From assembly GCA_016218215.1 (NCBI GenBank), contig JACREM010000041.1, positions 1 through 62,805 of the forward strand: 62,805 bases of DNA, written 5' to 3'. The position numbers and the translations under genes are program-made. Positions 106 to 55,171 of the stretch are shown here, in pieces (within the stretch, counting starts at the first letter, position 1; each line of letters opens with the position of its first letter). The DNA comes from Candidatus Gottesmanbacteria bacterium. GTDB lineage: Bacteria; Patescibacteriota; Microgenomatia; UBA10105; UBA927. Under the pieces are notes generated by a model. The model saw only the letters and a program-made list of their open reading frames with translations, ran no database searches and was not told the origin of the DNA.

Positions 106-130
106 ATACCCCGATGGCTCTGCCTCGGGG
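83..130. terminator. Hairpin-rich spacer between convergent gene ends (possible bidirectional terminator)
   Basis: AGAGCC(83-88)/GGCTCT(116-121) encloses TCGGG/CCCGA. A second pairing is CCCCGA(109-114)/TCGGGG(125-130). There is no clean T-tract. Confidence 0.35.
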
Positions 131-139
131 AGTGTCATT

Positions 140-1336: not shown

Positions 1337-1362
1337 TGAGCGTGTTGATATAATAATCAGGA

Positions 1363-3051
1363 ATGAAATTATTTCAAAAAGATTCTATATTTCAGTGTAT
1401 TGTTTTTTTGTTCATCACTTTTGTTGTGCTAGCTACTTATCATGGAGTTTTCTTTACTTTTTTTCAGCAAGATGAATGGCAAAATTATGGACATCATTTA
1501 CTGAAAGGCGCAGGAGTACTATTTGACACAGATCGTGGCCAAAATCTCCTCAAACTTTTTTTTGCAGAAGGACGGGTACTATCAGAAGTGATGTATCTAC
1601 TTCTTTATGGTATAAGCAGGTTTTCAGTTGTTCCAATATTTATTTTTAGCATTTTCGTACAAGTAATTAATTCATATTTAGTATTTATATTAGGAAAAAA
1701 TATCTCGAAATCTTTATTTTTTGGGATAATTGCATCGTTATTTTTTGCAGTAAATAGTGTGTCTAGCCAAGCTGTGACTTGGGCGGCTGCCGTAGGAACT
1801 TTGCCTGCAGCAACATTCTTGCTTTTTTCGTTGTTGTTGTATGTTGAGTATCTTGAAGGCGGAAATACGCGAAAGCGTAATTTTTCTTATTTTCTTGGTA
1901 TTCTCTCTCTATTTTTTAAAGAAACAGGTTTATTTATTTTCGTATTATACCCATTGCTATATCTTCTTTGGGGAAAAGTTAAAAAGATACAAGATATTTT
2001 TCTCGTACATGCACCACTACTTTTGTATGGTATAGCACTTGTCTTGTTTCGAATGTACGAATTGCTTTCGGCACCAAAATCTGCCGCTGGGTTTGTGGGT
2101 CCAGATAGTGGAGGGTTCATTTTGCCAATGTTGTATCACAGTATAGTTAATCCAATGATTTCTCTTATTCAGATGTTTATTCCTCCACTTGATATATATG
2201 CATTCATTCCAACTATTGTTCGGAGCGAATACAGGATGCTTGTTGGTTCCCCGATGTTTGATCTGGTAGGGCAAAGTGCTGTGACAGACGTTGTTTCCCT
2301 CGCCGGGAGCATGATTGTGCTCTTTATTTTGGGCGGTATGCTTTTAGCAGAAAAGAATGAAAATTACGCAAAGAAAACTTTAACTTTTGGATTATTGCTT
2401 TTTTGGCTGAGTTTCCTGCCTTATGCTGTCTTGCATAAAGAATTTTCCTATATGTCATCACGGTATTATTATGTTGGAGCGATCGGTGCTGCTATAGTAT
2501 TTGGGTACCTTGTTGATTGGTTTTTGTGTAGGGTTCATTTTATTGGAAAATCATTCATTTTTGGTTTGGTTGGAATATTTTTAGTGCATCAGATGCAATC
2601 AATTCAAAATGATATTAGACCTCAGATTGTACTTGCCAATGAGAGGAAAAATTATCTGAATGAAATTAAGAGAGTTCATCCGAAGCTGGAAAATAAAACC
2701 ATATTTTATATTACGAGTGATAAAAAATTTCTTGGAGAAATTACGTATCCGTTTCAGAATGGATTGGGATACATATTAGAAGTTCAGTATTATAATACCG
2801 GCAAGATACCAAGAAGTTTCTTAGCGACGGATTTTCTTTGGGATTTGGGAAGTGAGGGATTTAGGGATGAGAACGGTTCTATCTTTGGTTATTTTGAACA
2901 TCTGGATCTGATTGGAGCGGCCGTAAAAGAAGGAAAAATTTCTCCACAAATAGTGTATAGCTATATTTATAATAGTAAAACTCATACAATGAGTGATATC
3001 TCGCTTTCAGTAAGAGAACAGCTTGCCACGCTGAGCGGAAGCTTGCAATGA
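1363..3051 (+). CDS. Polytopic membrane protein, GT-C/PMT-like glycosyltransferase candidate
   Basis: 562 aa with about 10 or more hydrophobic helices and an acidic motif in the first loop (FFQQDEWQNYGHH). A soluble domain of about 150 aa lies at the C-terminus. Function assigned from architecture only. Confidence 0.55.
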   Translation: MKLFQKDSIFQCIVFLFITFVVLATYHGVFFTFFQQDEWQNYGHHLLKGAGVLFDTDRGQNLLKLFFAEGRVLSEVMYLLLYGISRFSVVPIFIFSIFVQVINSYLVFILGKNISKSLFFGIIASLFFAVNSVSSQAVTWAAAVGTLPAATFLLFSLLLYVEYLEGGNTRKRNFSYFLGILSLFFKETGLFIFVLYPLLYLLWGKVKKIQDIFLVHAPLLLYGIALVLFRMYELLSAPKSAAGFVGPDSGGFILPMLYHSIVNPMISLIQMFIPPLDIYAFIPTIVRSEYRMLVGSPMFDLVGQSAVTDVVSLAGSMIVLFILGGMLLAEKNENYAKKTLTFGLLLFWLSFLPYAVLHKEFSYMSSRYYYVGAIGAAIVFGYLVDWFLCRVHFIGKSFIFGLVGIFLVHQMQSIQNDIRPQIVLANERKNYLNEIKRVHPKLENKTIFYITSDKKFLGEITYPFQNGLGYILEVQYYNTGKIPRSFLATDFLWDLGSEGFRDENGSIFGYFEHLDLIGAAVKEGKISPQIVYSYIYNSKTHTMSDISLSVREQLATLSGSLQ

Positions 3052-6000
3052 AACGAATACATTCCATAGTCGAAATACTCTTTATCTTTTTTTGTAGTCT
3101 GACACCACTTCTTTGGCTACGAAATGGTGAGATAATTTTGGGACATGATAGCGGGTTTCGTTTAGATCCATTTCAATATCTTCATACGCTTTGGTATTCG
3201 TGGAATCCAAACTCAGGATTTGGAGTGGATGTAAATAATTATTCCGGATTTCTTATTGCTCAATTTCCTGAAGCGTTTTTTTCTCATGTATTTGGCTCTT
3301 TGAACGCTGGTCAGACGATGAGTTTTATTTTTTGGTTTTTTACCATAGGTATATCAATGTTTATATTGATGAGAAATTTTTTTACTGAAAAAAAGTATTG
3401 GTCGATACGAATTCTCGCTAGTATTTTTTACATGTATAATTTTTATCTTCTTCAGGGATGGTTTATATCAGAAAGAGCTAAATTTTCTCTTTTTGCAGCA
3501 TTACCGCTTTTATTTCTTATTTTCTGGAAAATGCTTTCACATAAATGGGGGATCTTACAAGGTAGTATTTTGATTGCTCTTACGCTATTTTTTCTTAATG
3601 GTGGAGGATCCCCTCCGTTATATGGAGGAATTCTAGTTGCGCTCGGAATATTATTTGCATATTTTATAGTGCTTTCTATTATAAAAAGAAATTTTATTGA
3701 GATAATTTATGTATTACGCTGTGTTTTATCTATTGGAGTCGCAACTGTATGTATAAATGCATATTGGGTATTACCTCAACTTTATTTCGCATTTAATCAG
3801 TATGCTTCTCAGCTTTCATCTTCCGGGGGAATTGCAGGAATACTTTCGTGGGAGGAGGCTGTAAATAGATATGCAAGTTTAATAAATTTACTTCGATTGC
3901 AAGGTATACCTGATTGGTATGAAAATCCAATGCATCCATATTCTGGTATATTTTTAACTTCACCAATTCTCATTATCGCGAGTTTCATCCCGAGTGCAAT
4001 TATGCTTTATGTTCTTATGAAAAAAACGTTAAGAGAGAAATTAAAAGATCAAAGAGTATTTTTATTTGTCTGTTTCATGGTTTTTTTGATTGGACTTGTT
4101 ATGACAGCAGGTTCTCATAGACCATTCGGCTTTATATACATTTTTCTTTTGAAATATTTGCCTGGATTTGCCATATTTCGTTCAGCATTTTATAAATTTG
4201 GACCTTCGTATTGGTTTTCTGCTGTTATATTATTTAGTGTTTCATTTTATTTATTTATTTCTCAAGTAATTAAAAATAATTTATATCAAAAAATAGCTCT
4301 GAGTTTTGTTATTATTGGTGTACTTCTATATCATTTTCCGTATTTTACGGGTACTTTTTTTCTTTGGAATAAGCCATTTTCAACTAAAATAGTTTTGCCC
4401 CAATATGTAAAAAACATGTTTCAGTATTTAAATAGTACATACCTGACTCAGGATAATCATATTTTAATTCTGCCACCACTCGATACTGCATACTATGCTG
4501 ATAGTTATAGTTGGGGTTTCTGGAGCCTAGATTTACTTGCTCGGTTAAGCTTACGTTCTTCGGTCATTGCAAATGATTCCAAAGGACCACTTGTTGCTGC
4601 CCTCTATGACGCTGCTTTGCGAAATAGGAATGATATTTTCGAAGCAATAGCCGGAAGGCTCGGGATAGACAAGATTTTATGGAGAAATGATATATTATAT
4701 TCCGATAAAAAATCTGACAGCAGGAACTTTTCATATATTCGAGATTCAATATTAAAAAGTACAGCATTTTATAATGAAAAGACTTTTGGTGAATGGTTCC
4801 TTTATTCTACAAATAAATTATTAAATTCAAATAATATAGTGAGTGTTGAGCCTCTGATTTATAGAGCAGATATTTATAATTCTGATATTTCATATTTTTT
4901 TAATGCAAATGGCGTTTTGGAATACCCATTTGTTTTTAGTAGTGATTTACATAAGAATATTACAGAGCAAAATTTAGGCACTTTTATAAAAGGAAATGTG
5001 CTTCAAGCTGAGTGCATGTTCTGTGGGTATGAGGGGGCTAAGAATAAAGATGTGATATTTATTGATCAGTATGCAAGATTTTTACCTAGCTCTCCATTCT
5101 ATACTTTTATTCGACAAAAAGAGACAAAATTATTATCAAGCGTGCAAGGCATTCCAGAAGCATTGGTGGATGCGGATCTCGGTCTTGCTACAAAACGAAT
5201 AGTTGAGTTATCCGGAGTCATAAATCAAGAGGGTAGGGATAATATAGAGCTTTTATCTCGTGATATCGTTATGCGTTTTAAGGAAAGAATAGATGATGCA
5301 TTTTTACAAATTGAAAAATTAGGAGATGTGAAGAAAAATATATATAAGGTAAAAATCAATTTGTATATTCGTTATTTTATCAAATATATTGCTGAGATTG
5401 AAAAAAAGAATATATTACCTGGTAATTTTATCTCTTCATTCTATGAATATTTGCGAAATGCAACAGAAAAATTATCTTTGGAAACATGGATAAGTGATGG
5501 AAATGGTCATGATAGGTATTTTCTTACGATACCGACAAAAGGTTTGTATCACTTTTTAATTTCGAATTATAATAAAAGTTTAAATTCGATAAAAATAGAT
5601 AATGAAACTATACTTGATTATTCCCAGGTCGATTTGTCAGAAGGTATTCATAAAATAGAATTGACATATGAACCAATAAATGAAATTGCGGAGAATGTTG
5701 GTGCCACAGAGAAAATATTTTTAACCTACCACAACAAAAAATCTTATATTCTACCAGCTTTGTCATCTTTAGATAATTATGAGTTGCAATTTCAATATAA
5801 GATTTCTCAAGGTCGAAGTATTTATGTTGCACTTTACCAAAACAATGATTCACTCGATAAATCTGGCAATATAAAGCGCGCAGTATACTCAGAACTTGAG
5901 GATGACGGAAAATGGCATTCAGCAAATTTTGTAATTCAACCTAATTTTGGCGTATCAACTGGGGAAGTAGTATTCTTTACTGCGAATACTTCAAATGATT

Positions 6001-6485
6001 TAAATGCATTAGAAGTAGAAAATTTGACTGTTAGAAACATTTCCCCATCTAGAATTTTTGTGGTCCGAGAAAATGAAAAAGTTCCAGTTGAGATGCCTAG
6101 TATTAATGTAAAAAGAAATAATTCGGCTATATACACCGTGAAGGTAGATGAAGCAAAACATCCGTATATTTTAAATTTTAAGCAAACTTTTAATCAAGGA
6201 TGGAAAGCATTTGTAATACCGTCTGGAGATACTGAAAAATATGAGAATGCATGGCAGAGATTTAAGTTATTATTTCAATCCCCTGTCGAAGAAACACAAC
6301 ATTTCTCGATAGACGGATATACAAATGCTTGGATTATAAAAAATACTGGTTCATACACAGTACTTCTCGTATATTGGCCACATATGCTATTTCTTGTATC
6401 AGTTGTATGTTCTGTTATTTCGATTTTATTGACTTGCTTAGTAGTGTTAAAGATTATTAGAGAAAAGGGCAAATCACATGAATAG
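3048..6485 (+). CDS. Giant GT-C-like membrane glycosyltransferase (AftD/DUF3367- or YfhO-like architecture)
   Basis: 1145 aa. The N-terminus reads GHDSGFRLDPFQYLHTLWYSWNPNSGFG and is followed by about 12 TM helices. A soluble region of about 650 aa and a single C-terminal TM anchor (LFLVSVVCSVISILLTCLVVL) follow. ATGA overlap with the upstream gene. Confidence 0.6.
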   Translation: MKRIHSIVEILFIFFCSLTPLLWLRNGEIILGHDSGFRLDPFQYLHTLWYSWNPNSGFGVDVNNYSGFLIAQFPEAFFSHVFGSLNAGQTMSFIFWFFTIGISMFILMRNFFTEKKYWSIRILASIFYMYNFYLLQGWFISERAKFSLFAALPLLFLIFWKMLSHKWGILQGSILIALTLFFLNGGGSPPLYGGILVALGILFAYFIVLSIIKRNFIEIIYVLRCVLSIGVATVCINAYWVLPQLYFAFNQYASQLSSSGGIAGILSWEEAVNRYASLINLLRLQGIPDWYENPMHPYSGIFLTSPILIIASFIPSAIMLYVLMKKTLREKLKDQRVFLFVCFMVFLIGLVMTAGSHRPFGFIYIFLLKYLPGFAIFRSAFYKFGPSYWFSAVILFSVSFYLFISQVIKNNLYQKIALSFVIIGVLLYHFPYFTGTFFLWNKPFSTKIVLPQYVKNMFQYLNSTYLTQDNHILILPPLDTAYYADSYSWGFWSLDLLARLSLRSSVIANDSKGPLVAALYDAALRNRNDIFEAIAGRLGIDKILWRNDILYSDKKSDSRNFSYIRDSILKSTAFYNEKTFGEWFLYSTNKLLNSNNIVSVEPLIYRADIYNSDISYFFNANGVLEYPFVFSSDLHKNITEQNLGTFIKGNVLQAECMFCGYEGAKNKDVIFIDQYARFLPSSPFYTFIRQKETKLLSSVQGIPEALVDADLGLATKRIVELSGVINQEGRDNIELLSRDIVMRFKERIDDAFLQIEKLGDVKKNIYKVKINLYIRYFIKYIAEIEKKNILPGNFISSFYEYLRNATEKLSLETWISDGNGHDRYFLTIPTKGLYHFLISNYNKSLNSIKIDNETILDYSQVDLSEGIHKIELTYEPINEIAENVGATEKIFLTYHNKKSYILPALSSLDNYELQFQYKISQGRSIYVALYQNNDSLDKSGNIKRAVYSELEDDGKWHSANFVIQPNFGVSTGEVVFFTANTSNDLNALEVENLTVRNISPSRIFVVRENEKVPVEMPSINVKRNNSAIYTVKVDEAKHPYILNFKQTFNQGWKAFVIPSGDTEKYENAWQRFKLLFQSPVEETQHFSIDGYTNAWIIKNTGSYTVLLVYWPHMLFLVSVVCSVISILLTCLVVLKIIREKGKSHE

Positions 6486-6840
6486 GATGCAAATTCAGTG
6501 TATGGAATTTGTTGCAAAAAATGGTTCAAAATTAATTGTATTTACTCTCGCTGTAGTTTTGCTAATATTCCTAGAGAAGTTTCCCTATTTAAACATTCTA
6601 TTGTCTTATCCTTTTACCTGGAATCTATTTGTAATCCTTTTTTTCTTGTTAGTTGTACTTTTTAAGCCCACAGAGTCTTTTTCCTTTTTTTCTTCTTTGG
6701 TATTTTTATGTTTTTCAGCTATATTTTCTATTTTTCGAAAAGATATGGCTGCTCAAGGAGTCGGAAATATCGCTGTGTATTTATTGATATTTGGATTTTT
6801 ACAAATAGTTCTTTTTAAGTTAAAAGTAAATCATGTATGA
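6478..6840 (+). CDS. Small 4-TM membrane protein
   Basis: 120 aa with four hydrophobic segments. It overlaps both neighbouring genes (8 nt and 4 nt), which implies co-translation with the flanking GT-C genes. Confidence 0.6.
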   Translation: MNRMQIQCMEFVAKNGSKLIVFTLAVVLLIFLEKFPYLNILLSYPFTWNLFVILFFLLVVLFKPTESFSFFSSLVFLCFSAIFSIFRKDMAAQGVGNIAVYLLIFGFLQIVLFKLKVNHV

Positions 6841-8867
6841 AAAAATTTATTGAGAAAATTCTTTTAACGAATAGATTTCAAGTGGTTATGTTTGTGTTTG
6901 TGATATTGTATATAGCATTAGTGTTTCGCGGTTGGTTTTCTTTTTCACTTCATGTATCTGGCGACTTTTTATATAAGTTTCCTGAGGCGGTAAAGGATTT
7001 TCCATTGTTTCCTTCACTTTGGAATTCAATCATAGCCGGGGGACTCGGTGGAAATGCAAGTTTTCTTCTGGGACTAGAGTCCTGGTACTTAGCATCTGCA
7101 AAGATATTTGGTTTTTTTGGTCTCGGATGGGAGTGGGTAGAAAAGATAATCTGGTTCTATCCATTTCTGTTTATTTCATTTTTAGGCAGTTTTTTCCTTG
7201 GGAAAAGGATCCTTCATTCAAGTATTTGGGCTCTCATTTCATCTGTGATTTATTGTACGAATACATATGTCCTCATGATCTCAGGGGGAGGCCAGATTGG
7301 CGTACTGCTTTCAGTTGCTCTTGCTCCATGGGTACTTGATCGATCCTTGGCATTACTCGACCACCTTAGTAGAAAGAATATTGTTTATCTTAGTATTGTG
7401 CTTGCTTTTCAAATGCTGTTTGATGCACGGATGGTGTTTGTTACGAGCATGGGGATTGCTTTATTATTCTTTTTTCAAATTTCATCAATTTCATGGCTTA
7501 AGGATCGATTGCTTTACCTTGGCATTTCATTTTTCTTTGCTTTCGGACTTCTCTCGTGGTGGCTTTTGCCTTTTGTTTTTTCTCCTCATGAAACTTTAAG
7601 TTCCATGGGATTATCGTCAGTATCTCTTTCTGCTGTGCGTTATTTCAGTTTCGCGCCATTTGAGCATGCAATCTCGCTTCTTCATCCCAATTGGCCGGAG
7701 AATATATTTGGCAAGATCCACTTTTTGCAGCCGGAATTTTTACTATTACCGTTTTTGGCATTTTTAAGTTTATCCTTCATACATAAGAGTGAAACGAAGA
7801 GATATTTATATATAGGTTTTGTCATAACAGCACTAGTAGGAGCGTTTTTAGCAAAAGGATCTCAGCCTCCGTTTGGGAATATATATGAATATTTATATAT
7901 GCATGTTCCGGGTTTTAGTTTGTTCCGTGACCCGACTAAATTTTTATTGCTTGTAGCACTTTCGTATTCAGTTTTGATTCCGTACACGCTTCAGAGATTT
8001 GCTGAAATTATTAAAACTAAATATGGAAACAAAAAAGAGAGAACCGTAGTTGGTATTCTGATCTTGTTTTTTATTTTTCTCTGGGGCACAGTGCATAGAG
8101 AAATTTTTACTCCGGGGCTTGGTGGGACTTTTCAGGAGCACGGAGTAAATATAGAATACACTCAGCTGAAAGATTTTTTGTTAAAAGATAAAGAATTTGG
8201 ACGAATGCTTTGGGTGCCAACAACCCATAAATTAGGGTTTTCTTCAGGTTTACATCCATCAATATCCGCTATGGATGTATTGAAAAGTACAAATTCCGCT
8301 GAATTATTTGACAGACTACAGAATTCAGAAACGCTACGAAAACTTGAAGAATGGGCAGTGTCATATATCGTGGTTCCTGAGGATACGAGTGCCGAGATAT
8401 TCGCGACAGACCGAAGGTATGACGACAAAAAATATCAAGAAGCACTTAGGGCCATGGAGATTGTTCCTGGATTCCATGTTGCTGCGCAGTTAGGGAAAAT
8501 TGTAGTTTTCCAATCTAACTTGCCGGTTCGGCACGTGTGGATTATCGGTGATGGAAATATTTCTGTTTCTGCCGAGTATAAAAAATTATCGAATACTTCT
8601 TACATTTTGGACAAACCCATCGGAATAACGTTGACTGCACTCTATTTGTCAGAAAGATATGATCCGGGATGGGTAGCGCGGATAGGTGATTTGCGTATCG
8701 CTTCGACGAAGACAGATACCAATATTAATATGTTTAACATCCCAGATGGAGCATCAGATTCAATTCTGATTGAATACGAGCCGCAAAAATATGTAATTGC
8801 GGGAATGATTTTGTCGATTCTGACCGGATGTGCCATGGCGGTGTATTTTTTCAATAGAAAATTATGA
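6837..8867 (+). CDS. GT-C-like polytopic membrane glycosyltransferase candidate
   Basis: 676 aa. It has an N-terminal multi-TM domain, a soluble C-terminal domain and a terminal TM anchor (VIAGMILSILTGCAMAVYFF). The layout matches the 3048-6485 protein. Confidence 0.6.
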   Translation: MKKFIEKILLTNRFQVVMFVFVILYIALVFRGWFSFSLHVSGDFLYKFPEAVKDFPLFPSLWNSIIAGGLGGNASFLLGLESWYLASAKIFGFFGLGWEWVEKIIWFYPFLFISFLGSFFLGKRILHSSIWALISSVIYCTNTYVLMISGGGQIGVLLSVALAPWVLDRSLALLDHLSRKNIVYLSIVLAFQMLFDARMVFVTSMGIALLFFFQISSISWLKDRLLYLGISFFFAFGLLSWWLLPFVFSPHETLSSMGLSSVSLSAVRYFSFAPFEHAISLLHPNWPENIFGKIHFLQPEFLLLPFLAFLSLSFIHKSETKRYLYIGFVITALVGAFLAKGSQPPFGNIYEYLYMHVPGFSLFRDPTKFLLLVALSYSVLIPYTLQRFAEIIKTKYGNKKERTVVGILILFFIFLWGTVHREIFTPGLGGTFQEHGVNIEYTQLKDFLLKDKEFGRMLWVPTTHKLGFSSGLHPSISAMDVLKSTNSAELFDRLQNSETLRKLEEWAVSYIVVPEDTSAEIFATDRRYDDKKYQEALRAMEIVPGFHVAAQLGKIVVFQSNLPVRHVWIIGDGNISVSAEYKKLSNTSYILDKPIGITLTALYLSERYDPGWVARIGDLRIASTKTDTNINMFNIPDGASDSILIEYEPQKYVIAGMILSILTGCAMAVYFFNRKL

Positions 8868-42271: not shown

Positions 42272-43444
42272 ATGATACGGATGATCAAAAATTGGTATCA
42301 TTTCATGCGGGCTGTAGCTTCGATACTGTATTTTCGGTTTCCAGACAGGAATCTCGTTGTCATTGGAGTTACTGGTACAGACGGGAAAACGACAACCACA
42401 ACCCTTATTTATCACATATTGCGATCCTTAGGGGTGAAAACCTCGATGATAACATCTGTTCATGCGGTCATTGCCGGAAAGGAGTATGACACGGGGTTTC
42501 ATGTGACATCTCCGGATTCGTACTACATTCAAAAATATCTTCGAGAGGCAATTGATCACGGTGATACGCATTTTGTCCTTGAGGTCACATCTCATGGATT
42601 GGCTCAGCACAGATTTTTCGGTGTTCGATTTTCTGTCGGCGTACTGACAAATATTACTCACGAACATCTCGATTGGCATAGGTCGTTTGATGAGTATATG
42701 AGAACAAAATTTACTCTTTTACGACGATCAGCCATAGCAGTATTAAATCGAGATGAAACAGATGTATATACAAAAGCAGTAGCAAGTATGGGAAACAAGA
42801 AAATAGTAACGTATGCCATACGAAGAGATGCAATGATGACAACGAATAACACGCCGTTTCAAACGTTACTTCCGGGAGAATTCAATCAATACAATAGCTT
42901 AGCTGCAATTTCAGCACTATATGCTCTGGGTTTTCCTATGAAAAAGATTGTCCGAGCTGTTTCAACATTTCAGGGAGTTGTAGGAAGAATGGAAGTACTG
43001 AAAGTTCGCCCGTTTCGTATCATCGTAGATTTTGCTCATACCCCAAATGCTATAGAGCAGGTAGGGAAAACCGTACGGGCGCAAACAAAAGGAAAACTTA
43101 TCCATGTATTTGGTTCAGCAGGCCTTCGGGACGCGTCTAAACGCCCTATGATGGGAAAAAATTCGTCCCAATTTGCTGATGTTATTGTTTTAACAGAAGA
43201 AGATTATCGTACAGAGAATGTACAAGATATCATGACTTCTATTCGAAAGGGGATTTCGATTGATACCCCAACATACCAGTATGAAAATAGGTACGATGCT
43301 ATCGAATTCGCGCTGTCTATCGCAAAGCCCGGGGACACAGTGCTTGTAACAGGGAAAGGACATGAGAAAAGTCTTTGCCGCGGAACAGTTGAGATTCCAT
43401 GGAGCGATCAGGAAACAATACAACAGATATTGAAAAAGATTTGA
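42272..43444 (+). CDS. murE: Mur ligase, MurE-like, lacking the N-terminal UDP-binding domain
   Basis: The P-loop GVTGTDGKTTTT is already at residues 33-44. DFAHTPNA and GSAGLRDASKRPMMG..VLTEEDYRTEN are present. The protein is only 390 aa. Confidence 0.75.
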   Translation: MIRMIKNWYHFMRAVASILYFRFPDRNLVVIGVTGTDGKTTTTTLIYHILRSLGVKTSMITSVHAVIAGKEYDTGFHVTSPDSYYIQKYLREAIDHGDTHFVLEVTSHGLAQHRFFGVRFSVGVLTNITHEHLDWHRSFDEYMRTKFTLLRRSAIAVLNRDETDVYTKAVASMGNKKIVTYAIRRDAMMTTNNTPFQTLLPGEFNQYNSLAAISALYALGFPMKKIVRAVSTFQGVVGRMEVLKVRPFRIIVDFAHTPNAIEQVGKTVRAQTKGKLIHVFGSAGLRDASKRPMMGKNSSQFADVIVLTEEDYRTENVQDIMTSIRKGISIDTPTYQYENRYDAIEFALSIAKPGDTVLVTGKGHEKSLCRGTVEIPWSDQETIQQILKKI

Positions 43445-43448
43445 AACA

Positions 43449-44213
43449 TTGGGGTCAATATTCATGAATGATATACAAAAAAAATACTATTATACTTCGC
43501 CGTTATTTGCACAATATAACGAGGTTTTTCATGGGACAACAACGAAGCAGTATGGTCCAATAAAGAGAGATGCATCCACAATAGAATATCTTTGCGGTGT
43601 TTTTGGTCGCAAAAAACAAGACTTTATTACCGGACAACAAACACATGGAAATACGGTATTGGAAGTGAATTCAACGCATAGAGGAGTTGTGGCGCCATCC
43701 ACTGACGGATTAGTATTGCATGTAAATGATAAGAGTCAGTCAAAAAAATTGTTTATAGGTGTATTTACAGCGGATTGTGTCCCTGTTTTTTTCTACGATC
43801 CAAAGAATTCTCTCGTTGGTATCTGTCATGCAGGATGGAAAGGGGTTATCGGAAAAATCGTGAAGAACATGGTAAAACAATGTATAAAATGCGGCAGCAA
43901 CCCGGGCAATCTTCGGGTTTGCTTGGGTCCTCACATACGTTCGTGCAGTTACTCTGTTGCCATAGAACGAGCAAGACTGTTTGAGGAGACGTATGGAAAA
44001 GATTCAGGTGTTGTCGCGGTGCATGACTCAAAGCATTTTATAAATCTTTCAGAAGCAATTTCCCTTGATCTAAAAGCAAGCGGCGTGAATCCTCGGCATA
44101 TAGATCATGACTGCTCACCGTGCACTTATTGCGATAGCGAAATGTTTTATTCGTATAGAAGACGAATCGGTGAAGAAATGCATGAGATGATAAGTTTTAT
44201 TGGTATTCATTAA
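43449..44213 (+). CDS. pgeF: YfiH/PgeF (DUF152) family protein, peptidoglycan editing factor / laccase-domain protein
   Basis: FTADCVPVFFYD, CHAGWKG and GPHIRSCSY are present. The start could be 43449 or 43464. Confidence 0.8.
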   Translation: MGSIFMNDIQKKYYYTSPLFAQYNEVFHGTTTKQYGPIKRDASTIEYLCGVFGRKKQDFITGQQTHGNTVLEVNSTHRGVVAPSTDGLVLHVNDKSQSKKLFIGVFTADCVPVFFYDPKNSLVGICHAGWKGVIGKIVKNMVKQCIKCGSNPGNLRVCLGPHIRSCSYSVAIERARLFEETYGKDSGVVAVHDSKHFINLSEAISLDLKASGVNPRHIDHDCSPCTYCDSEMFYSYRRRIGEEMHEMISFIGIH

Positions 44214-46637: not shown

Positions 46638-47969
46638 ATGCAAACGTTTGAAATTACTGGGGGTACGCCACTATTGGGGACGATAGAGGTTGGTGGTGCA
46701 AAGAATGTCGCATTGAAGCTTTTGGTTGCAAGCTTGCTTACTGATGACGAGCTTATTATCCACAATGTGCCCAAGCTACGCGATGTCCTTTTTATGCTTG
46801 ATGTGCTAAAAAGTCTTGGTGTTAAAGAGTCTTTTGTTGGAAATACCGTGAGAATTCAGGGAGGGGCAAATGTAGCCACCACAGTGCCCCTAGAGGTTGG
46901 GGCTCGCCTTCGGACATCTTCTATGGTACTCGGCCCTATGCTTGCCCGTTTTGGCGAAGCAAAGCTTCCAAACCCCGGGGGTTGTCGTATCGGCGCGAGG
47001 CCTATAGACCGGCATATTGAGGGCTTAAAGAAGATGGGTGCTACTATTTCTTATCACTCTGATGACGGTTATTTTTACGGTGTTGCAAAAAAACTTACTG
47101 GCGCAGACATTACGTTTGAAAAGAACACTCATACGGGCACAGAAACATTAATTCTGGCTGCAGTTCTTGCTTCAGGGAAAACTATTCTTCGTAACGCAGC
47201 GAGTGAAGTAGAGGTAGACGATCTCATAGGATTTTTGAATTCCATGGGCGCAAGAATACAAAGAACAGCAGAGAATGAGATTACTATCGATGGCGTCGAA
47301 TCCCTGCATGGATCGGAATATACAGTGATGCCAGATAGAAACGAAGAAGTTACGTTTGCAATTGCTGCAGTTGTGACAAAAGGAGATCTTACTATAAAAA
47401 ATTCTCAGAGGAATAATTTAGAATCATTTATTCAGAAATTTTCTCAGGTTGGTGGCGGTATCGAAGAAATAGATGATAAAACGACACGGTATTACTATAA
47501 AGAACCCCTAAAGGCAAGTGACATAATGACCCAGAGGTATCCGGGATTCATGACCGATTGGCAAGCACCCTGGGCTCTTCTCATGACCCAGTCAGAAGGC
47601 GTTTCAACACTCCATGAAACAGTGTTTGAAAGTAGATTTTCATACGTATCAGAATTAAAAAAGATGGGTGCAGTGATAGAATTTTATACCCCGAAGGTCG
47701 CAGATCCTGAAAAGTTTTATAATTTTAACTGGGATGATAAAGTAGAAGGATATTTTCAGGGCATACGTATAACAGGTCCTACAGCTCTTCATAATGCAGT
47801 ACTTTCCATTGACGATTTGCGCGCGGGTGCCACGCTTGTGTTGGCGGCACTTTCTGCAAACGGTCAGAGCTATGTGCATGGTGTGGAGCAGGTTGATCGC
47901 GGATATGAAAAAATTGAAAAAAGATTGTCTCGTGTCGGTGCCCACATTAAACGCATCGAGGAGGAGTAA
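46638..47969 (+). CDS. murA: UDP-N-acetylglucosamine 1-carboxyvinyltransferase
   Basis: GGAKNVALKLLVASLL and the active-site loop PNPGGCRIGARPIDRHI are present. Confidence 0.92.
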   Translation: MQTFEITGGTPLLGTIEVGGAKNVALKLLVASLLTDDELIIHNVPKLRDVLFMLDVLKSLGVKESFVGNTVRIQGGANVATTVPLEVGARLRTSSMVLGPMLARFGEAKLPNPGGCRIGARPIDRHIEGLKKMGATISYHSDDGYFYGVAKKLTGADITFEKNTHTGTETLILAAVLASGKTILRNAASEVEVDDLIGFLNSMGARIQRTAENEITIDGVESLHGSEYTVMPDRNEEVTFAIAAVVTKGDLTIKNSQRNNLESFIQKFSQVGGGIEEIDDKTTRYYYKEPLKASDIMTQRYPGFMTDWQAPWALLMTQSEGVSTLHETVFESRFSYVSELKKMGAVIEFYTPKVADPEKFYNFNWDDKVEGYFQGIRITGPTALHNAVLSIDDLRAGATLVLAALSANGQSYVHGVEQVDRGYEKIEKRLSRVGAHIKRIEEE

Positions 47970-47973
47970 TAGT

Positions 47974-49287
47974 ATGAAAAATAATGTTACATGTGTTGTT
48001 CTTGCTGGTGGAGAGGGAAAACGGTTTTGGCCGCTTTTAACAAATAAAGTGCTATTTCCCTTTTTTGGGAAACCTTTGTTTGATTATTCCGTAAGAGATG
48101 TTTTGCCAAAAGAAGTAGACAATGTTGTCATCGTAGCACGTCCCTCAACAAAAGTTGTATATGAGTCTCTGACGTTGCCCGTGAAACATTCAGTAGTCGT
48201 ACAAGAACAGCCTCTCGGCATGGCAGATGCGCTTCTCCAGTCAAAAGAGTTTCTCCCAAAACACACACCAATTTTGATAGCCATAGCAGACGACGTCGCT
48301 GATCCTTTGCTTTTCTCTGAACTGTTAAAGACAGCTGCGAAAAAAAATGCATTTGGCGTAATTCCCGGGTGGAAAGTCGAAACATATCATGATTTAGGAT
48401 ATCTCGTTTTGGACGGAGAGCGTGTCACATCGATAGTGGAAAAACCCAGTGAAGGGAATGAACCAAGCTCGTATGTGTATATTTCCGGACAGTATATATC
48501 TGACTGCACCATATTATTTGATCAAATTGAAAAAATTTCTAGTGAAAAGGATGATGTTTTTGAGAAGGCAGTTTCTCGCCTCATGGAGAAAAATTTGTTT
48601 GTCATGCATCCATATTCAGGTAGCGATGCGACGCTTAAGCTTCCTTGGCATGTGCTTGATGTCATGGACCAGTTATTTTTACGCGTAAAATCTCATAGAG
48701 GGAAAAACGTTGTTATTAAATCAAACGTAGTCATTGAGGGAGAAGTTTACATAGACGATGACGTGAAGATTTATGAAAATACGAAAATTGTAGGTCCGGC
48801 ATACATTGGTCGAGGGACGATTGTCGGAAACAACAATATGATCCGTCACAGTCACATTGGAGCTGGATGCGTGACCGGATTTAATACGGATATAACCCGA
48901 AGTTATGTAGGAGATTCCTGCTGGTTTCACATGAATTACATAGGGGACAGTGTCCTTGAAAGTGAGATAACGCTCGGTGGAGGTGCGATGCTTGCTAATT
49001 TACGTCTTGATGACGGAGAGATTCGATCGGAAGTAAAAGGTGAAATGAAAAAGACACAAAAAAATAAACTTGGAAGCATCATTGGAAGAGGAGTTCGGAT
49101 CGGCGCAAATACAACGATTATGCCGGGGATAAAAATCGGCAAGGGCACGCTTATTTCTTCTGGACTTGTTATAGATCGTGATATCCCTGACGGGTCGTTT
49201 GTAAAAGGAATCACCAACTATACAATCGTATCGAATAAAGACGCCGTTCATCCTCTCTCCCGGGATGAATTTAAAAAGAAACTGTAA
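47974..49287 (+). CDS. GlmU-like bifunctional sugar-1-phosphate nucleotidyltransferase / LbH acyltransferase
   Basis: Start trimmed to MKNNVTCVVLAGGEGKRFWPL. The C-terminus holds hexapeptide repeats (IGRGTIVGNNNMIRHSHIGAG.., IGANTTIMPGIKIGKGTLISSG). Confidence 0.7.
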   Translation: MKNNVTCVVLAGGEGKRFWPLLTNKVLFPFFGKPLFDYSVRDVLPKEVDNVVIVARPSTKVVYESLTLPVKHSVVVQEQPLGMADALLQSKEFLPKHTPILIAIADDVADPLLFSELLKTAAKKNAFGVIPGWKVETYHDLGYLVLDGERVTSIVEKPSEGNEPSSYVYISGQYISDCTILFDQIEKISSEKDDVFEKAVSRLMEKNLFVMHPYSGSDATLKLPWHVLDVMDQLFLRVKSHRGKNVVIKSNVVIEGEVYIDDDVKIYENTKIVGPAYIGRGTIVGNNNMIRHSHIGAGCVTGFNTDITRSYVGDSCWFHMNYIGDSVLESEITLGGGAMLANLRLDDGEIRSEVKGEMKKTQKNKLGSIIGRGVRIGANTTIMPGIKIGKGTLISSGLVIDRDIPDGSFVKGITNYTIVSNKDAVHPLSRDEFKKKL

Positions 49288-49292
49288 TTATT

Positions 49293-50009
49293 ATGAAGAG
49301 AGATATTATTATTCTCCATGGGTGGGGGCTTGATGGTTCCCGTTTCACTCCGTTAAAAACAGAACTTGAAAAACGTGGAGCGAGAGTATGGGCACCGGAT
49401 TTTCCTGGCTTTGGTTCGGCAAAAAATCCACAAGCACCCTATCATCTTTTTGAGTATGCGATGTTTTTACGAGATTTTATGAAAAAATATAAGATACAAA
49501 ATCCCGGTTTTATCGGCCATTCCTTTGGAGGAAGAGTAGCACTCAAGTATGATTTTCTCTTTCCAAAAAGCGTGCGTTGGATAGTGCTCACTGGTACACC
49601 AGGGTTTCGATCGTCTTCATCGCTTAAGGTGAGTTTGGGTATTGCAATTGTAAAATTGGGTAAATATTTTGTTTCATTACCTCTCATGAAAAACTTTAAG
49701 AACTCAATAACTCAGAGCTATTATTCTTTTATAGGTGTTCAAGGGTATGGTCGTGCTCAAGGGACAATGAAAGACACATTTAAATATATTGTTTCTGAGC
49801 CACTTGAATCATATATGAAATCGCTTTCAGTCCCGTGTTTACTTCTTTGGGGTGAACTTGACACCCTCGTTCCAACCCAAATAGCGGTGAGAATGCATAA
49901 CGCTATACCAAATTCTACTGTATCTATTATTCGTGGATTTGGCCACTCAGTGCCATATACAAGTCCGTATGATTTTGTGAGGCTCATGAAGCAACATAAT
50001 TTTATATGA
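49293..50009 (+). CDS. Alpha/beta-fold hydrolase
   Basis: HGWG, the nucleophile elbow GHSFGG, Asp in GELDTLVP and His in GFGHSV. Confidence 0.75.
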   Translation: MKRDIIILHGWGLDGSRFTPLKTELEKRGARVWAPDFPGFGSAKNPQAPYHLFEYAMFLRDFMKKYKIQNPGFIGHSFGGRVALKYDFLFPKSVRWIVLTGTPGFRSSSSLKVSLGIAIVKLGKYFVSLPLMKNFKNSITQSYYSFIGVQGYGRAQGTMKDTFKYIVSEPLESYMKSLSVPCLLLWGELDTLVPTQIAVRMHNAIPNSTVSIIRGFGHSVPYTSPYDFVRLMKQHNFI

Positions 50010-51481
50010 ATATTGCTATTACTATCGTCGCTTTCTTCTGGGCGCTTCGAATTTTAAGAAATATTCTTTCTTATGCACAACTTTGGTATGTAAAAGAGTA
50101 TCGGCTGGATCGGATGCTTATTCATCTTCGTACTGATCAAGGGAAGCGGATATTTAATCCAAGTTTCAGGAGACCTCCAATTTCACCTAAGTCAGTTGTA
50201 CTTGTTGGTGTGACTTTTATTGCTTTTAGTGTTTTTGTGTATTCATTTTCTGCGCCGATTTTTTTGTCTTTATTAATAACCGATTTATTGCTTTTTCCAT
50301 GTATGGGTTTTTTTGTGTTCATCCTCAATATGCCAACGTTTATGTATCATTCACTCCTTATTTCTCTTGCGGTATCAAAATTACGATCACACGGAAAAAT
50401 GGTCTGTATCGGTATCACCGGAAGTTATGGAAAAACTTCGACAAAAGAGTATCTCGCTACAATTTTGGAACAGTCCGATACCGTACTCAAAACCGCGGCA
50501 AGTAAAAATTCTCCGATTGCAATAGCAGAGCTCGTTTTACACAATTTGAAACCATCTCATAGAATTTTTATAGTAGAAATGGGAGCGTACAAAGAAGGAG
50601 AAATTGCACAAATGTGCCGTATGGTGCTTCCTGAAATAGGTATTGTTACTGCGATAAATGAGCAGCATCAGGATTTGTTTGGAAATATAGAGACAACCAT
50701 GAAGGCAAAATATGAACTCATTTCATCACTCTCTGGTAAAAAAATTGCCATCATGAATGCGGATAACCCGTATGTATTTGCGATGGCAGAGCAGGCAAAA
50801 AAAGATGGAGTAGATGTGTGGTGTTATACGAAGGATGTGAAGAAAAAATTTTCCTTCGGGCATGTGTTTTATATTCGCAATATTCATGAGAGTGTTGATA
50901 AATTACGATTTACGATTCTATACAAGAAAAAATCATACGATGTGTCAGCACCCGTGATTGGTGCATTTCAGGCACAAAATATTACCGCTGCAATTGCTGG
51001 AAGTATCGCAGGTGGAATGGAAATAATTGATGCTGTAGAGGCGTGCAACAGTCTTCAGTCTGTGCCAAAGATGATGCAGAAGCTGGACGGTATACATGGG
51101 TCTATATATATAAATGATACATTTAACAATAATCCCGATGCGGCATGTGCCGCTCTTGAATATTTACGGATAGGAGAAGAACGTAAAATTCTCGTCTTTC
51201 AGCCGATGATTGAGCTAGGATCGTTTTCGCAAGTCGCACATGAGCGGGTCGGAAAACTTGCAGGAGAAGTGTGTGATGAAATACTTCTGACAAATACAAA
51301 TTTTCGTACACCGTTTTTACAAGGCGTCAAATTGAGCGGAGGCAATGCACGCGTTTTTGTATTAGATTCAAATAAAGCTCAAAAATTCTTGAGAAATTAT
51401 CTGCACGCGGGAGACATGGTGTTATTTAAAGGCAAAGAAGCCCAATCAGTGATTACGCTACTTGAAGAAAAATCTTTATGA
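50006..51481 (+). CDS. murF: MurF-like Mur ligase with an N-terminal multi-TM domain
   Basis: Residues 1-125 contain about four hydrophobic helices. These are followed by GITGSYGKTSTKEY, VEMGAYKEGEI and INDTFNNNPDAA. Confidence 0.8.
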   Translation: MNIAITIVAFFWALRILRNILSYAQLWYVKEYRLDRMLIHLRTDQGKRIFNPSFRRPPISPKSVVLVGVTFIAFSVFVYSFSAPIFLSLLITDLLLFPCMGFFVFILNMPTFMYHSLLISLAVSKLRSHGKMVCIGITGSYGKTSTKEYLATILEQSDTVLKTAASKNSPIAIAELVLHNLKPSHRIFIVEMGAYKEGEIAQMCRMVLPEIGIVTAINEQHQDLFGNIETTMKAKYELISSLSGKKIAIMNADNPYVFAMAEQAKKDGVDVWCYTKDVKKKFSFGHVFYIRNIHESVDKLRFTILYKKKSYDVSAPVIGAFQAQNITAAIAGSIAGGMEIIDAVEACNSLQSVPKMMQKLDGIHGSIYINDTFNNNPDAACAALEYLRIGEERKILVFQPMIELGSFSQVAHERVGKLAGEVCDEILLTNTNFRTPFLQGVKLSGGNARVFVLDSNKAQKFLRNYLHAGDMVLFKGKEAQSVITLLEEKSL

Positions 51482-52704
51482 TATTTTCACCAATCACGTG
51501 TTCTCTGTCGCCAAATACTGAGATATCAGACGTATGGACAGCGTGTAAGACGCTTTTTATGCCGTGGAAATGGATGACAGGTGGCGAGATTACGAAAGTT
51601 GAGTCTTGGTTTCATACAAGATACCCATTATATGTTAGCCTTTCCACTAACAGCGGAAGAAGTGCTCTGTACCTACTTTTACAATCATTTGGAATAGGAG
51701 AGGGAGATGAGGTTATCGTTCAATCTTTTACCTGCGTCGCTTTGCCAAATGCAGTGCTTTGGACCGGAGCGACTCCTGTATATGCGGATATTGATACACG
51801 GTTTAATATAGATCCTTTGTCGATTGAAAAACATATTCATCCGCAAACAAAGGCGATCATCATTCAGAATACGTTTGGCATACCAGCACAGTATGAAAAA
51901 ATTGCAGAGATTGCAAAGAAACAGAACATTCTCTGTATAGAAGATTGTGCTCATAGCCTGGGTGGTCGATATGAATCTGGTGCTTTAATAGGCGGGGTTG
52001 GGGATGCAAGTTTTTTTAGTTTTGGGAGAGATAAGATTATTTCAAGTGTTTTTGGCGGGGTCGGAAGCATACACAAAAAACATACAAAAGCGGTGGCAAG
52101 ATTTATATCGTTACATAGTAAACTACAATTTCCAAACCCAATCTGGGTATTTCAGCAAATTTTTCATCCAATTGCGTTTTCGTTCATATTGCCTTTGTAT
52201 TCATTGGGAATTGGAAAAGCATTGCTTTTTCTCCTTCAAAAATTGAAATTGCTTTCGTTTCCTGTATATAAAGAGGAAAAGGAGGGAAAAAGACCGACTG
52301 ATTTTCCTAAAAAATATCCAAACGCGCTGGCTCAAATGCTTATTCCTCAACTTAAAAAATTAGAGAGATATACTGCCCAAAGAACTGTAATCTCTGGGTA
52401 TTATAAAAAATCATTAGGCTCCTCATTTTCTCCGATGGATCTCGTGACTGGTTCAGTATTTTTACGGTATCCGGTTCTTTCTCAAAAAAGGGATGAGATT
52501 ATTTCAAAAGCAAAATCACAAGGGATACTCCTTGGGACGTGGTACAGTAATATTCTTGATCCCAAGGGTACGAATTTCCACAATTTGTATTATACAAAGG
52601 GTTCATGTCCAAAATCAGAGAGGTGTGCATCCCTTATCCTTAATCTTCCGACGCGAATATCACTTGCTGATGCAAAGAAAGTAGTTGCATCTTTACAACA
52701 ATGA
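51478..52704 (+). CDS. DegT/DnrJ/EryC1/StrS family aminotransferase-fold protein with a hydrophobic insert
   Basis: NSGRSALYLLL, VIVQSFTCVALPNAV and FFSFGRDKIISSVFGG are present. The insert reads IWVFQQIFHPIAFSFILPLYSLGIGKALLFLLQKL. ATGA overlaps on both sides. Confidence 0.75.
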   Translation: MIFSPITCSLSPNTEISDVWTACKTLFMPWKWMTGGEITKVESWFHTRYPLYVSLSTNSGRSALYLLLQSFGIGEGDEVIVQSFTCVALPNAVLWTGATPVYADIDTRFNIDPLSIEKHIHPQTKAIIIQNTFGIPAQYEKIAEIAKKQNILCIEDCAHSLGGRYESGALIGGVGDASFFSFGRDKIISSVFGGVGSIHKKHTKAVARFISLHSKLQFPNPIWVFQQIFHPIAFSFILPLYSLGIGKALLFLLQKLKLLSFPVYKEEKEGKRPTDFPKKYPNALAQMLIPQLKKLERYTAQRTVISGYYKKSLGSSFSPMDLVTGSVFLRYPVLSQKRDEIISKAKSQGILLGTWYSNILDPKGTNFHNLYYTKGSCPKSERCASLILNLPTRISLADAKKVVASLQQ

Positions 52705-53714
52705 AAAAAATACATATTCAATCAATAATAGATAAATCAACGTGGGATGAATTTATGATGCGATTTGGAAAAGCATCGCTTTTCCAAAGTTTTGAATGGG
52801 GCGAAGTAGAGGCACGTATGGGTATTCCATTATCTCGTCATGGATTATTCGAGGGAAATACTCTTGTAGGGGTATTTCAGATCGCAGTTATGAAATCCCG
52901 CCGAGGCATATTCCTCCATGTCCGGCATGGGCCTGTTTTATCCAGTCAATCTGAGGATTACTGGGACACATTTATATCGTATATGAAGGATATGGGAAAA
53001 AGAGAGAATGCTTACTTTTTCCGGGTAAACCCAATGATTTTTGATTCGGAGGAACAGAGGAAAATGCTCAGAGATCTAGGGTTTCGTCCGTCACCCATAC
53101 ATGCCATGGACGCAGAGTATTGTTTGGTCCTTGATATCACGAAAAGCGAGGAAGAATTGCTCTCCTCTATGAGAAAAACCACACGATATGAAATCCGAAA
53201 AGCAGACTCTCTTGGCGTCAAAGTATCTCACTATGTAGATAAAAGACACTTAGATCATTTTTTTGATCTGTACAAAAAAACTGCGCTTCGCCATGAGTTT
53301 GTACCTCATAGCGGTATACGCGAAGAATTTGATGTTTTTGTGAGAGACGGGAAGGCGGTGTATATAGAAGCGCAGTACGGAAGTGAAATTCTTGCCGGAG
53401 CGATTATCCTTTTTTATATGGGACAGGCGATTTATCACCATGGAGCATCAATTCCCTCTAAAATTCCTGCTGCCTACGCCATACAATGGGCCGCGATAAG
53501 AGAAGCAAAAAAAAGAGAATGTACTCGGTATAATTTTTGGGGTATAGCACCGGAAGATAAAAAAAATCATCCATGGAGAGGAATTACTGGGTTTAAATAC
53601 GGATTTGGCGGAGTTCCTGAATCGTACATGCACGCTCATGATTTCCCGTTGGATATTCGGTACTCAATTTCATATCTTATTGAAACAGTAAGGCGTATAA
53701 AAAAAGGATATTAA
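52701..53714 (+). CDS. FemAB/FemX family aminoacyl-tRNA-dependent peptidoglycan peptidyltransferase
   Basis: ASLFQSFEWGEV, MRKTTRYEIRKADSLG, YHHGAS, RYNFWGI and GITGFKYGFGG are present. Confidence 0.85.
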   Translation: MKKIHIQSIIDKSTWDEFMMRFGKASLFQSFEWGEVEARMGIPLSRHGLFEGNTLVGVFQIAVMKSRRGIFLHVRHGPVLSSQSEDYWDTFISYMKDMGKRENAYFFRVNPMIFDSEEQRKMLRDLGFRPSPIHAMDAEYCLVLDITKSEEELLSSMRKTTRYEIRKADSLGVKVSHYVDKRHLDHFFDLYKKTALRHEFVPHSGIREEFDVFVRDGKAVYIEAQYGSEILAGAIILFYMGQAIYHHGASIPSKIPAAYAIQWAAIREAKKRECTRYNFWGIAPEDKKNHPWRGITGFKYGFGGVPESYMHAHDFPLDIRYSISYLIETVRRIKKGY

Positions 53715-54113: not shown

Positions 54114-54118
54114 ACTGT

Positions 54119-55171
54119 ATGACGGAACTTCTTGGGATATTATTATTTTCTTGGCTTATTCATAGCATCCTCTATGTCCCATTTATCCGAACCTTATATT
54201 CTCTCAAGCTTCAGAGATTAGAGCAAAAGACACGCGATGCGTTTGACAAGCGTACGCCGATTTTTGACAAACTTCATCAACACAAAGCTGGTACCCCTGT
54301 AGGCGGAGGGTTACTTATTATCCTTGTGACAACTGTTCTCGTCCCATTCATTCTCCTTCTTATGAAGTATTTTTGGTTTCCGATCACTTCGGTATTTCCT
54401 CTTTTTTCGGAGATAAAAGTAGTGCTTTTTGCTTTTCTCTCGTTTGGATTATTAGGCCTCGTAGATGATATGAAAAAAACGTTCGCCTGGAACGGGGCAT
54501 CAGGGATCTTTGGACTTCGACTCCGGCATAAACTGATTTTAGAGATCATTCTTGCTGTCGTTCTCTCATTTTGGATGGTATATGAGTTAAAAATTGATAT
54601 CTTTTATCTTCCGTTTTTTGGTGTATTTCGGATGGGGTGGTTTTATATCCCGTTTGCTGCATTTGTAATTATAGCGTTTGCCAATGCGTTTAACATTACA
54701 GATGGTTTGGATGGGTTATCATCGGGAGTGCTTACGGTTGCATTGGTTGCATTCTGGTTTATCTCAGCTACCATTCTCGATACTCCGCTCTCTATATTCT
54801 TAGCAATTTGGATAGGTGGCCTTGTTTCTTTTTTGTATTTTAATGTGGCCCCGGCTCGTATATTTTTAGGTGACGTGGGGGCACTATCGTTCGGAGCGAC
54901 CTTTGCAGTGGTGGGCCTTATGCTTGGGAAAGCCCCTGCTCTTGTTGTCATCGGCGGAATTTTTGTCGTTGAAGTTTTATCATCTCTTCTTCAGCTGTTG
55001 TCTAAAAAATATCTGGGAAGAAAACTATTTGTGGTTGCACCATTTCATCTCTGGCTTCAGTATAAAGGATGGCCGGAAACAAAAATTGTCATGCGATTTT
55101 GGATTATCGGAATTATTCTGGCAATTTTTGGACTATGGTTAGCGCTTCTAACCAAGCAGACAACTTTGTAA
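54119..55171 (+). CDS. mraY: Phospho-N-acetylmuramoyl-pentapeptide transferase
   Basis: KAGTPVGGG, GLVDD, AFNITDGLDGLSSG and IFLGDVGALSFGA are present. Start trimmed to MTELLGILL. Confidence 0.92.
   Translation: MTELLGILLFSWLIHSILYVPFIRTLYSLKLQRLEQKTRDAFDKRTPIFDKLHQHKAGTPVGGGLLIILVTTVLVPFILLLMKYFWFPITSVFPLFSEIKVVLFAFLSFGLLGLVDDMKKTFAWNGASGIFGLRLRHKLILEIILAVVLSFWMVYELKIDIFYLPFFGVFRMGWFYIPFAAFVIIAFANAFNITDGLDGLSSGVLTVALVAFWFISATILDTPLSIFLAIWIGGLVSFLYFNVAPARIFLGDVGALSFGATFAVVGLMLGKAPALVVIGGIFVVEVLSSLLQLLSKKYLGRKLFVVAPFHLWLQYKGWPETKIVMRFWIIGIILAIFGLWLALLTKQTTL

Follow-up and report, generated by a model that had tools for sequence, protein, structure and literature searches.

MurF is an essential enzyme and an antibiotic target, and is described in textbooks as a soluble cytoplasmic protein. 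What becomes of such an enzyme when membrane helices stand in the place of its soluble N-terminal domain is the question raised by an open reading frame (ORF) from Candidatus Gottesmanbacteria, a member of the Patescibacteria. This ORF, hereafter referred to as the transmembrane-type murF, lies on contig JACREM010000041.1 of assembly GCA_016218215.1, of which positions 1 to 62,805 were analysed as one stretch (the window). A first interpretation of the DNA made without database searches (the sequence-only reading) had proposed a MurF whose N-terminal UDP-binding domain is replaced by about four transmembrane helices. The analysis reported here indicates that the ORF encodes a MurF-type ligase, probably tethered at the inner side of the membrane through an N-terminal module of three spans, beside MraY, the next enzyme of the pathway, with a conserved juxtamembrane motif that would either substitute for part of the missing domain or dock the module, and with an EstV-like serine hydrolase as its partner (Table 1).

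I first consider the ligase. Pfam assigns residues 137–331 to Mur_ligase_M and residues 357–477 to Mur_ligase_C, and identifies no Mur ligase N-terminal domain in the 491-residue protein. The top NCBIfam family is murF (TIGR01143, 215.5 bits), with MurD, MurE and MurC at 79 bits or less, and residues 125–478 correspond to positions 67–407 of this model, leaving its ∼66 N-terminal positions unmatched. The P-loop, the glutamate of VEMGAY (Mg-Glu), the motifs NEQHQD (NxxH), KAKYE (KAK) and NDTFNNNP (DxxNxNP), and PMIELG with its downstream histidine match Escherichia coli MurF (PDB 1gg4) position by position, and because of this alignment the MurF catalytic motifs, and with them the ligase, look intact. 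When the AlphaFold2 model of the protein was compared to the PDB with Foldseek, the nine best matches were all MurF structures (4qf5, 4cvk, 4cvm, 3zl8, 1gg4), the best being 4qf5 (E-value 1.4e-26, TM-score 0.73 when normalised by target length). Approximately 380 of the 491 residues align to the solved MurFs, corresponding to the ligase part only. The MurF-like central and C-terminal domains of the sequence-only reading are therefore borne out by Pfam, by TIGR01143, by the motifs and by the predicted fold, including the comparison with MurF structures that it had suggested as a check, and the peptides it quoted are all found in the ORF.

Two other identities were considered for the ligase and rejected. 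The MurT family (NF045635) matches with an E-value of only 0.0014 and 17.6 bits, and the genome possesses a separate MurT-like gene. For a PgsB/CapB-type amide ligase, no poly-gamma-glutamate synthase family is present among the 25 listed NCBIfam matches (E-value ≤1).

In canonical MurF, domain 1 is reported to carry the uridine-ribose pocket (PMC11569785, citing Longenecker 2005). Model positions 1–66 being unmatched and a Pfam N-terminal domain being absent, a translated and conserved hydrophobic module is found here instead, and the replacement of the soluble domain proposed in the sequence-only reading is upheld. Its hydropathy was computed according to Kyte and Doolittle, in windows of 19 residues with a threshold of 1.6. 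Windows above this value are found at residues 3–21, 63–81 and 89–107, while the segment 112–123 remains below 1.3. The AlphaFold2 model, built from 67 homologues (predicted local distance difference test, pLDDT, 93; predicted template-modelling score, pTM, 0.89), possesses N-terminal helices at residues 2–29, 34–41 and 61–80, followed by a 44-residue helix spanning residues 85–128. The loop 23–62 contains nine Lys/Arg against three Asp/Glu, and the turn 82–84 contains neither. As this charge distribution fits the positive-inside rule, the N-terminus is predicted outside, followed by three membrane spans and a cytoplasmic linker helix, with the ligase inside. A fourth transmembrane helix was rejected, since residues 112–123 fall below 1.3 and are part of the single long helix 85–128. 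Of the "about four" helices proposed initially, the hydrophobic membrane N-terminus is thus retained, but the count is most likely three plus a linker helix, based on hydropathy, the AlphaFold2 helices and charge.

Among the 67 homologues (∼50% identity), residues W27, K30, E31, Y32, R33, D35, R36, T43, F97, P110 and H115 are invariant. The strongest conservation of the module is located in the cytoplasmic stretch LW-VKEYRxDRMxIHLxTxQGK that follows helix 1, rather than in the helices. Judging from this conservation pattern, the module is more than a greasy anchor.

Table 1. Position of the transmembrane-type murF, its domains and predicted membrane module, and of neighbouring genes, in the window.
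Feature	Position	Strand	Details
Membrane-anchored MurF-type ligase ORF	50006–51481	+	491 aa, whole ORF
Mur ligase central ATP-binding domain	50414–50998	+	Pfam PF08245, 2.7e-38; motifs GITGSYGKTS (P-loop), VEMGAY, NEQHQD, KAKYE
Mur ligase C-terminal domain	51074–51436	+	Pfam PF02875, 5.2e-10; motifs NDTFNNNP, PMIELG, H412
Predicted transmembrane helix 1, residues ∼1–22	50006–50071	+	Kyte-Doolittle peak 3–21, AlphaFold2 helix 2–29; conserved W12, R15, N19; N-terminus predicted outside
Predicted cytoplasmic juxtamembrane motif LW-VKEYRxDRMxIHLxTxQG, residues 26–46	50081–50143	+	best-conserved part of the module
Basic Pro-rich motif RRPPISPK, residues 55–62	50168–50191	+	just before transmembrane helix 2; P57, P61, K62 conserved
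Predicted transmembrane helix 2, residues 63–81	50192–50248	+	Kyte-Doolittle 2.19; AlphaFold2 helix 61–80
Predicted transmembrane helix 3, residues 85–107	50258–50326	+	Kyte-Doolittle 2.39; first part of AlphaFold2 helix 85–128; conserved D93, F97, P98
Predicted cytoplasmic linker helix, residues 108–128	50327–50389	+	Kyte-Doolittle <1.3; end of AlphaFold2 helix 85–128; conserved P110, Y114, H115, A122; leads into the ligase
EstV-like alpha/beta serine hydrolase	49293–50009	+	238 aa; Pfam Abhydrolase_1, 1.3e-25; GHSFG nucleophile motif; stop overlaps murF ATG, translational coupling
DegT-like pyridoxal phosphate enzyme	51478–52704	+	408 aa; Pfam DegT_DnrJ_EryC1, 4.9e-52, best stretch only residues 31–214; translationally coupled after murF
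FemAB-family transferase	52701–53714	+	Pfam FemAB, 1.4e-35; weak FemX NCBIfam match; translationally coupled downstream
MraY, next pathway enzyme, integral membrane	54116–55171	+	Pfam Glycos_transf_4, 9.2e-31; start uncertain, possibly 53990
Cu-oxidase_4 gene	43449–44213	+	PF02578; between murE and murC
MurE without N-terminal domain	42272–43444	+	390 aa; TIGR01085, 373 bits, model positions 69–471

The architecture is widespread in the Patescibacteria. More than 5,000 database homologues match over 98–100% of the length, and the named ones belong to this phylum, many of them to the Gottesmanbacteria. A profile of the N-terminal module identified it in 70 of the 401 sampled Patescibacteria genomes (∼17%; 60 of 320 genera), in each case fused in frame to a ligase within an open frame of ∼400–670 amino acids, except for two fragments at contig ends. 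Such tallies depend on the sensitivity of the profile, and 70 of 401 is an underestimate, since a subgroup of three sequences (L108, L115 and L116, from genomes G228, G033 and G005 respectively) was missed by it. A search with only the module as query, against 1.84 billion representative proteins, found it exclusively at residue 1 of proteins of 430–560 amino acids or in short fragments, and in no other domain context. Relatives differ in their number of helices. Canonical full-length MurFs and soluble MurFs lacking the N-terminal domain (∼390–445 amino acids) are present in the same phylum as well, the short form being carried by most of the sampled genomes in the class to which the window belongs.

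The three sequences missed by the profile possess motifs, 'FQL(L/E)(D/N)Y...' and 'K.L.FTPK', which are intermediate between the KEYRxDR type of the window and the type found in Campylobacterota. Ddl adjoins the transmembrane-type murF in G228 and is ∼2 kb away from it in G005, and the Ddl genes of G033 are on another contig.

Literature searches that paired MurF with transmembrane and with Candidate Phyla Radiation or Patescibacteria yielded no paper describing the architecture in this phylum. A counterpart does exist in Helicobacter pylori, whose MurF (HP0740 type) is 493 amino acids long, matches positions 62–403 of TIGR01143, and has a hydrophobic N-terminus of ∼170 residues. No other MurF-family match was obtained in the H. 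pylori genome that was searched. Both proteins are therefore ∼490 amino acids long, match the MurF model from position ∼62–67, lack domain 1, and have a multi-helix hydrophobic N-terminus, with more helices in H. pylori than in the window. Four N-terminal transmembrane domains are attributed to H. pylori MurF (PMC9448923, citing Blair et al. 2018), which is also described as essential (PMC9507126). The architecture is thus already in print for H. pylori, in one sentence of the cited text that gives no mechanism, and the novelty of the present finding is lowered accordingly, but this kind of MurF is barely characterised. Full-length transmembrane-type MurF is found in all 61 sampled Campylobacterota genomes, which together with the Patescibacteria tally bears on the question of the sequence-only reading as to how widespread the architecture is.

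To relate these proteins I refer to a maximum-likelihood tree of 55 ligase-domain sequences. All the transmembrane-type sequences, 25 from Patescibacteria and 9 from Campylobacterota, are on one side of a split with 100/100 support, and E. coli MurF, the canonical MurFs of Patescibacteria and the short forms are on the other. Canonical MurF (UDP-MurNAc-tripeptide:D-Ala-D-Ala ligase, EC 6.3.2.10; TIGR01143; PDB 1gg4, 4qf5, 4cvm, 3zl8) shares with the protein of the window the central and C-terminal domains, the motifs, the predicted fold, and the position in the dcw cluster ahead of mraY; however, it possesses the soluble domain 1, whereas the protein described here has the membrane module, scores below the family cut-off and belongs to a separate clade. 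The short MurFs of Patescibacteria (∼390–445 amino acids) also lack domain 1 and occur in the same phylum, but are devoid of the membrane module and cluster on the canonical side of the tree with 100/98 support, and their loss of domain 1 is thus a separate one.

The ligase domains of the window protein and H. pylori MurF share only 24% identity, and homology of the membrane module between the two phyla is weakly supported by sequence comparison. With BLASTP, N-terminal homology between the two proteins is limited to the linker helix; hhalign aligned only this helix, with a probability of 10%, in comparisons that covered both a single sequence and a profile, and a direct hmmsearch between the modules gave no match. 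A jackhmmer profile started from the window module and built from Patescibacteria only did retrieve Campylobacterota, with E-values of 2.5e-4 to 1e-3 compared to 0.032 for the best of 3,848 background ORFs, in an alignment that covers only the C-terminal half of the module (the basic-Pro motif, the last two helices and the linker). In this alignment, RRPPISPK of the window protein corresponds to K-x-L-V-F-T-P-R-V in Campylobacterota. In both types, helix 1 is followed by a Q/W-x-x-(E/H)-Y-x-x-x-R motif and the last two helices are preceded by a basic-Pro...T/S-P-K/R motif. In a loose form ([QW]-x(1-3)-[EDHN]-[YF]-x(2-4)-[RN]), the first of these is present behind helix 1 in all 34 transmembrane-type MurFs, compared to 92 of the 3,848 background ORFs (2.4%).

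Part of the gene context is shared. In H. pylori, the gene upstream of and overlapping murF belongs to the EstV lipase family (NF058580, 328.6 bits, cut-off 300), and H. pylori EstV is reported to be a short-chain carboxylesterase (PMC3741291, citing Ruiz et al. 2007). The hydrolase of the window shows 26% identity to it (E-value 2e-15), and its best NCBIfam match is likewise NF058580, with 84.5 bits and thus below the cut-off. A homologue of this hydrolase immediately precedes the transmembrane-type murF at 8 of 11 Patescibacteria loci and at 16 of 16 Campylobacterota loci. The two contexts differ further upstream, where H. pylori has Ddl directly before estV (ddl-estV-murF) and the window has a nucleoside triphosphate (NTP) transferase. 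H. pylori possesses Ddl, while the genome studied here lacks Ddl and Alr and has DegT-like and FemAB-like genes downstream of murF.

This genome (1.27 Mb, 96.9% complete) contains no second MurF-like gene elsewhere. Its other Mur-family genes encode MurC, MurD, MurE and a MurT-like ligase, the latter on contig C60 (locus L004:1345–2649, +) and matching the lipid II isoglutaminyl synthase subunit with 242 bits, below the cut-off. Apart from Ddl and Alr, a complete Mur pathway is encoded, together with MurI, an FtsI-type transpeptidase, FtsW and MurG.

The mechanism that I infer, with its topology, its substrate, the role of its motif and its closeness to MraY, would be as follows. The protein would be the organism's own MurF-type ligase, in an integral-membrane form, and would carry out the final cytoplasmic reaction in the synthesis of the peptidoglycan precursor. 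Starting from an outer N-terminus, helix 1 would lead into the basic cytoplasmic loop bearing W-x-x-K-E-Y-R-x-D-R-x-x-x-H, followed by helices 2 and 3 and by the rigid linker helix, and the ATP-dependent ligase domains would thereby be placed at the inner face of the membrane. The terminal dipeptide would be added to UDP-N-acetylmuramic acid (UDP-MurNAc)-tripeptide next to MraY, so that the product would need little diffusion to reach this enzyme. The juxtamembrane motif would have one of two roles, either taking over from domain 1 the contact with the nucleotide end of the substrate or docking the module to the central domain. Together with the EstV-like serine hydrolase, its obligate partner, the enzyme would form a conserved two-gene unit.

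Several observations weigh against this interpretation. The TIGR01143 score is below the curated MurF cut-off of 288.6 bits, and the topology rests on hydropathy, charge bias and the AlphaFold2 helices. The genomes of some Patescibacteria encode a short MurF in addition to the transmembrane type (L101 and L104 in G024, L106 and L105 in G348). Since the two forms co-occur in one genome and belong to different clades of the ligase tree, this suggests that they can have distinct roles, and in such genomes the transmembrane type may be a specialised paralogue. Finally, despite the 96.9% completeness, neither Ddl nor Alr was detected in the genome of the window, the best match to TIGR01205 having 22 bits and lying within a 1077-residue ATP-grasp ORF; the weak Ddl-like ATP-grasp genes of a sibling genome are missing as well. 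More broadly, canonical Ddl (above the family cut-off) is found in 2 of the 70 genomes bearing the KEYRxDR-type module, against 120 of the 331 without it (Fisher p 4.5e-10, uncorrected for phylogeny). Either D-Ala-D-Ala is imported, therefore, or the added unit is a different one, and it is for this reason uncertain that the enzyme is a D-Ala-D-Ala-adding ligase here.

The second possibility is that this MurF-lineage ligase adds a unit other than the D-Ala-D-Ala made by Ddl, such as another dipeptide or a single residue. The EstV-like hydrolase, the DegT-like enzyme and the FemAB-like transferase might then supply or edit this unit, and the stem peptide might end differently. The lack of Ddl and Alr, and the distribution of Ddl among module-bearing genomes, both speak for it, as does the arrangement of the hydrolase, murF, DegT-like and FemAB-like genes, which are joined by start-to-stop overlaps. 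However, the murFs of H. pylori and of the L108/L115/L116 type, which belong to the same ligase clade, stand beside a normal Ddl. A classical DD-transpeptidase of the FtsI type is encoded here, and such an enzyme needs a donor ending in D-Ala-D-X. Host-dependent Patescibacteria could also import D-Ala or D-Ala-D-Ala. On balance, I consider a different unit unlikely.

For Patescibacteria without Ddl and Alr, a broader proposal can be made from the same gene row, namely that the EstV-like, membrane MurF, DegT-like and FemAB-like proteins together finish the stem peptide by an undescribed route, be it with a non-canonical or differently made unit or by lipid-linked ligation, with the KEYRxDR motif replacing the uridine pocket. 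I regard this proposal as a long shot.

MurT is a Mur-family ligase of family NF045635 which lacks domain 1 and acts on lipid II, but it is not an integral membrane protein. In lacking the N-terminal UDP-binding domain and in acting at the membrane it resembles the enzyme described here, and it provides a precedent for a further explanation, whereby the membrane module binds the undecaprenyl-pyrophosphate end of the substrate, and the ligase finishes the stem peptide with lipid I or II as its substrate instead of the UDP-linked precursor, just as lipid II is the substrate of MurT/GatD. The UDP-binding domain is indeed gone, the conserved polar residues R15, N19 and D93 are in or near the membrane, and the MurE of this genome lacks its N-terminal domain too. 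However, across the wide family, conservation is highest for residues on the cytoplasmic side and not for those within the membrane. Many Patescibacteria have soluble MurFs of ∼400 amino acids without this domain, so its loss alone does not imply a lipid substrate. MurE is soluble here and acts before MurF, and the MraY of this organism would have to accept a tripeptide precursor. A lipid-linked substrate is therefore very improbable.

There is next to no chance that the hydrophobic N-terminus is an untranslated annotation artefact with the true start at the internal M132 before the P-loop, as the sequence-only reading had allowed for: this methionine does exist, and ∼400-residue MurFs without the N-terminal domain occur in the same class, but residues 1–130 are conserved at the protein level in thousands of homologues, 11 of them being invariant among 67, which shows that the region is translated and rules out the downstream start, while the ATG overlapping the upstream stop (ATGA), the frame open from 50006, and the in-frame fusion of module and ligase in 70 of 401 genomes also count against it. 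The integral-membrane MurF-type ligase remains the preferred interpretation.

The surrounding window is a dcw cluster, in the order rsmH, ftsI, murE, the Cu-oxidase_4 gene, murC, murB, murA, the NTP-transferase, the hydrolase and murF, then the DegT-like and FemAB-like genes, diacylglycerol kinase, mraY, murI, murD, ftsW, murG and ftsQAZ. The Cu-oxidase_4 gene is possibly a PgeF-type peptidoglycan editing factor. The NTP-transferase is GlmU-like, with a left-handed beta-helix domain (47794–49287, +), and its start is ambiguous, the longest ORF beginning at 47794, inside murA, and the Pfam match fitting a start at 47974. Only 40 nucleotides separate murE from the ftsI stop, leaving no room for the domain missing from MurE. 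Both late Mur ligases, MurE and MurF, are thus without domain 1 in this genome, while MurC and MurD keep theirs. Positions 1–8000 of the window have a G+C content of 0.31–0.36, compared to ∼0.40–0.45 in the rest, and contain large ORFs, including one of 1145 amino acids at 3048–6485.

Known MurF inhibitors sit in the uridine-ribose pocket, which belongs to domain 1. The MurF lineage used by Patescibacteria and by Campylobacterota, H. pylori among them, is devoid of this domain and is built into the membrane, which bears on whether compounds aimed at domain 1 can be effective in such bacteria. Two further questions are touched upon, namely how wall synthesis links its cytoplasmic steps to those at the membrane, and how the enzyme recognises a nucleotide substrate when domain 1 is missing. 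Testable questions also arise from the EstV-like partner, which is constant, and from the Patescibacteria form, in which Ddl and Alr are frequently absent.

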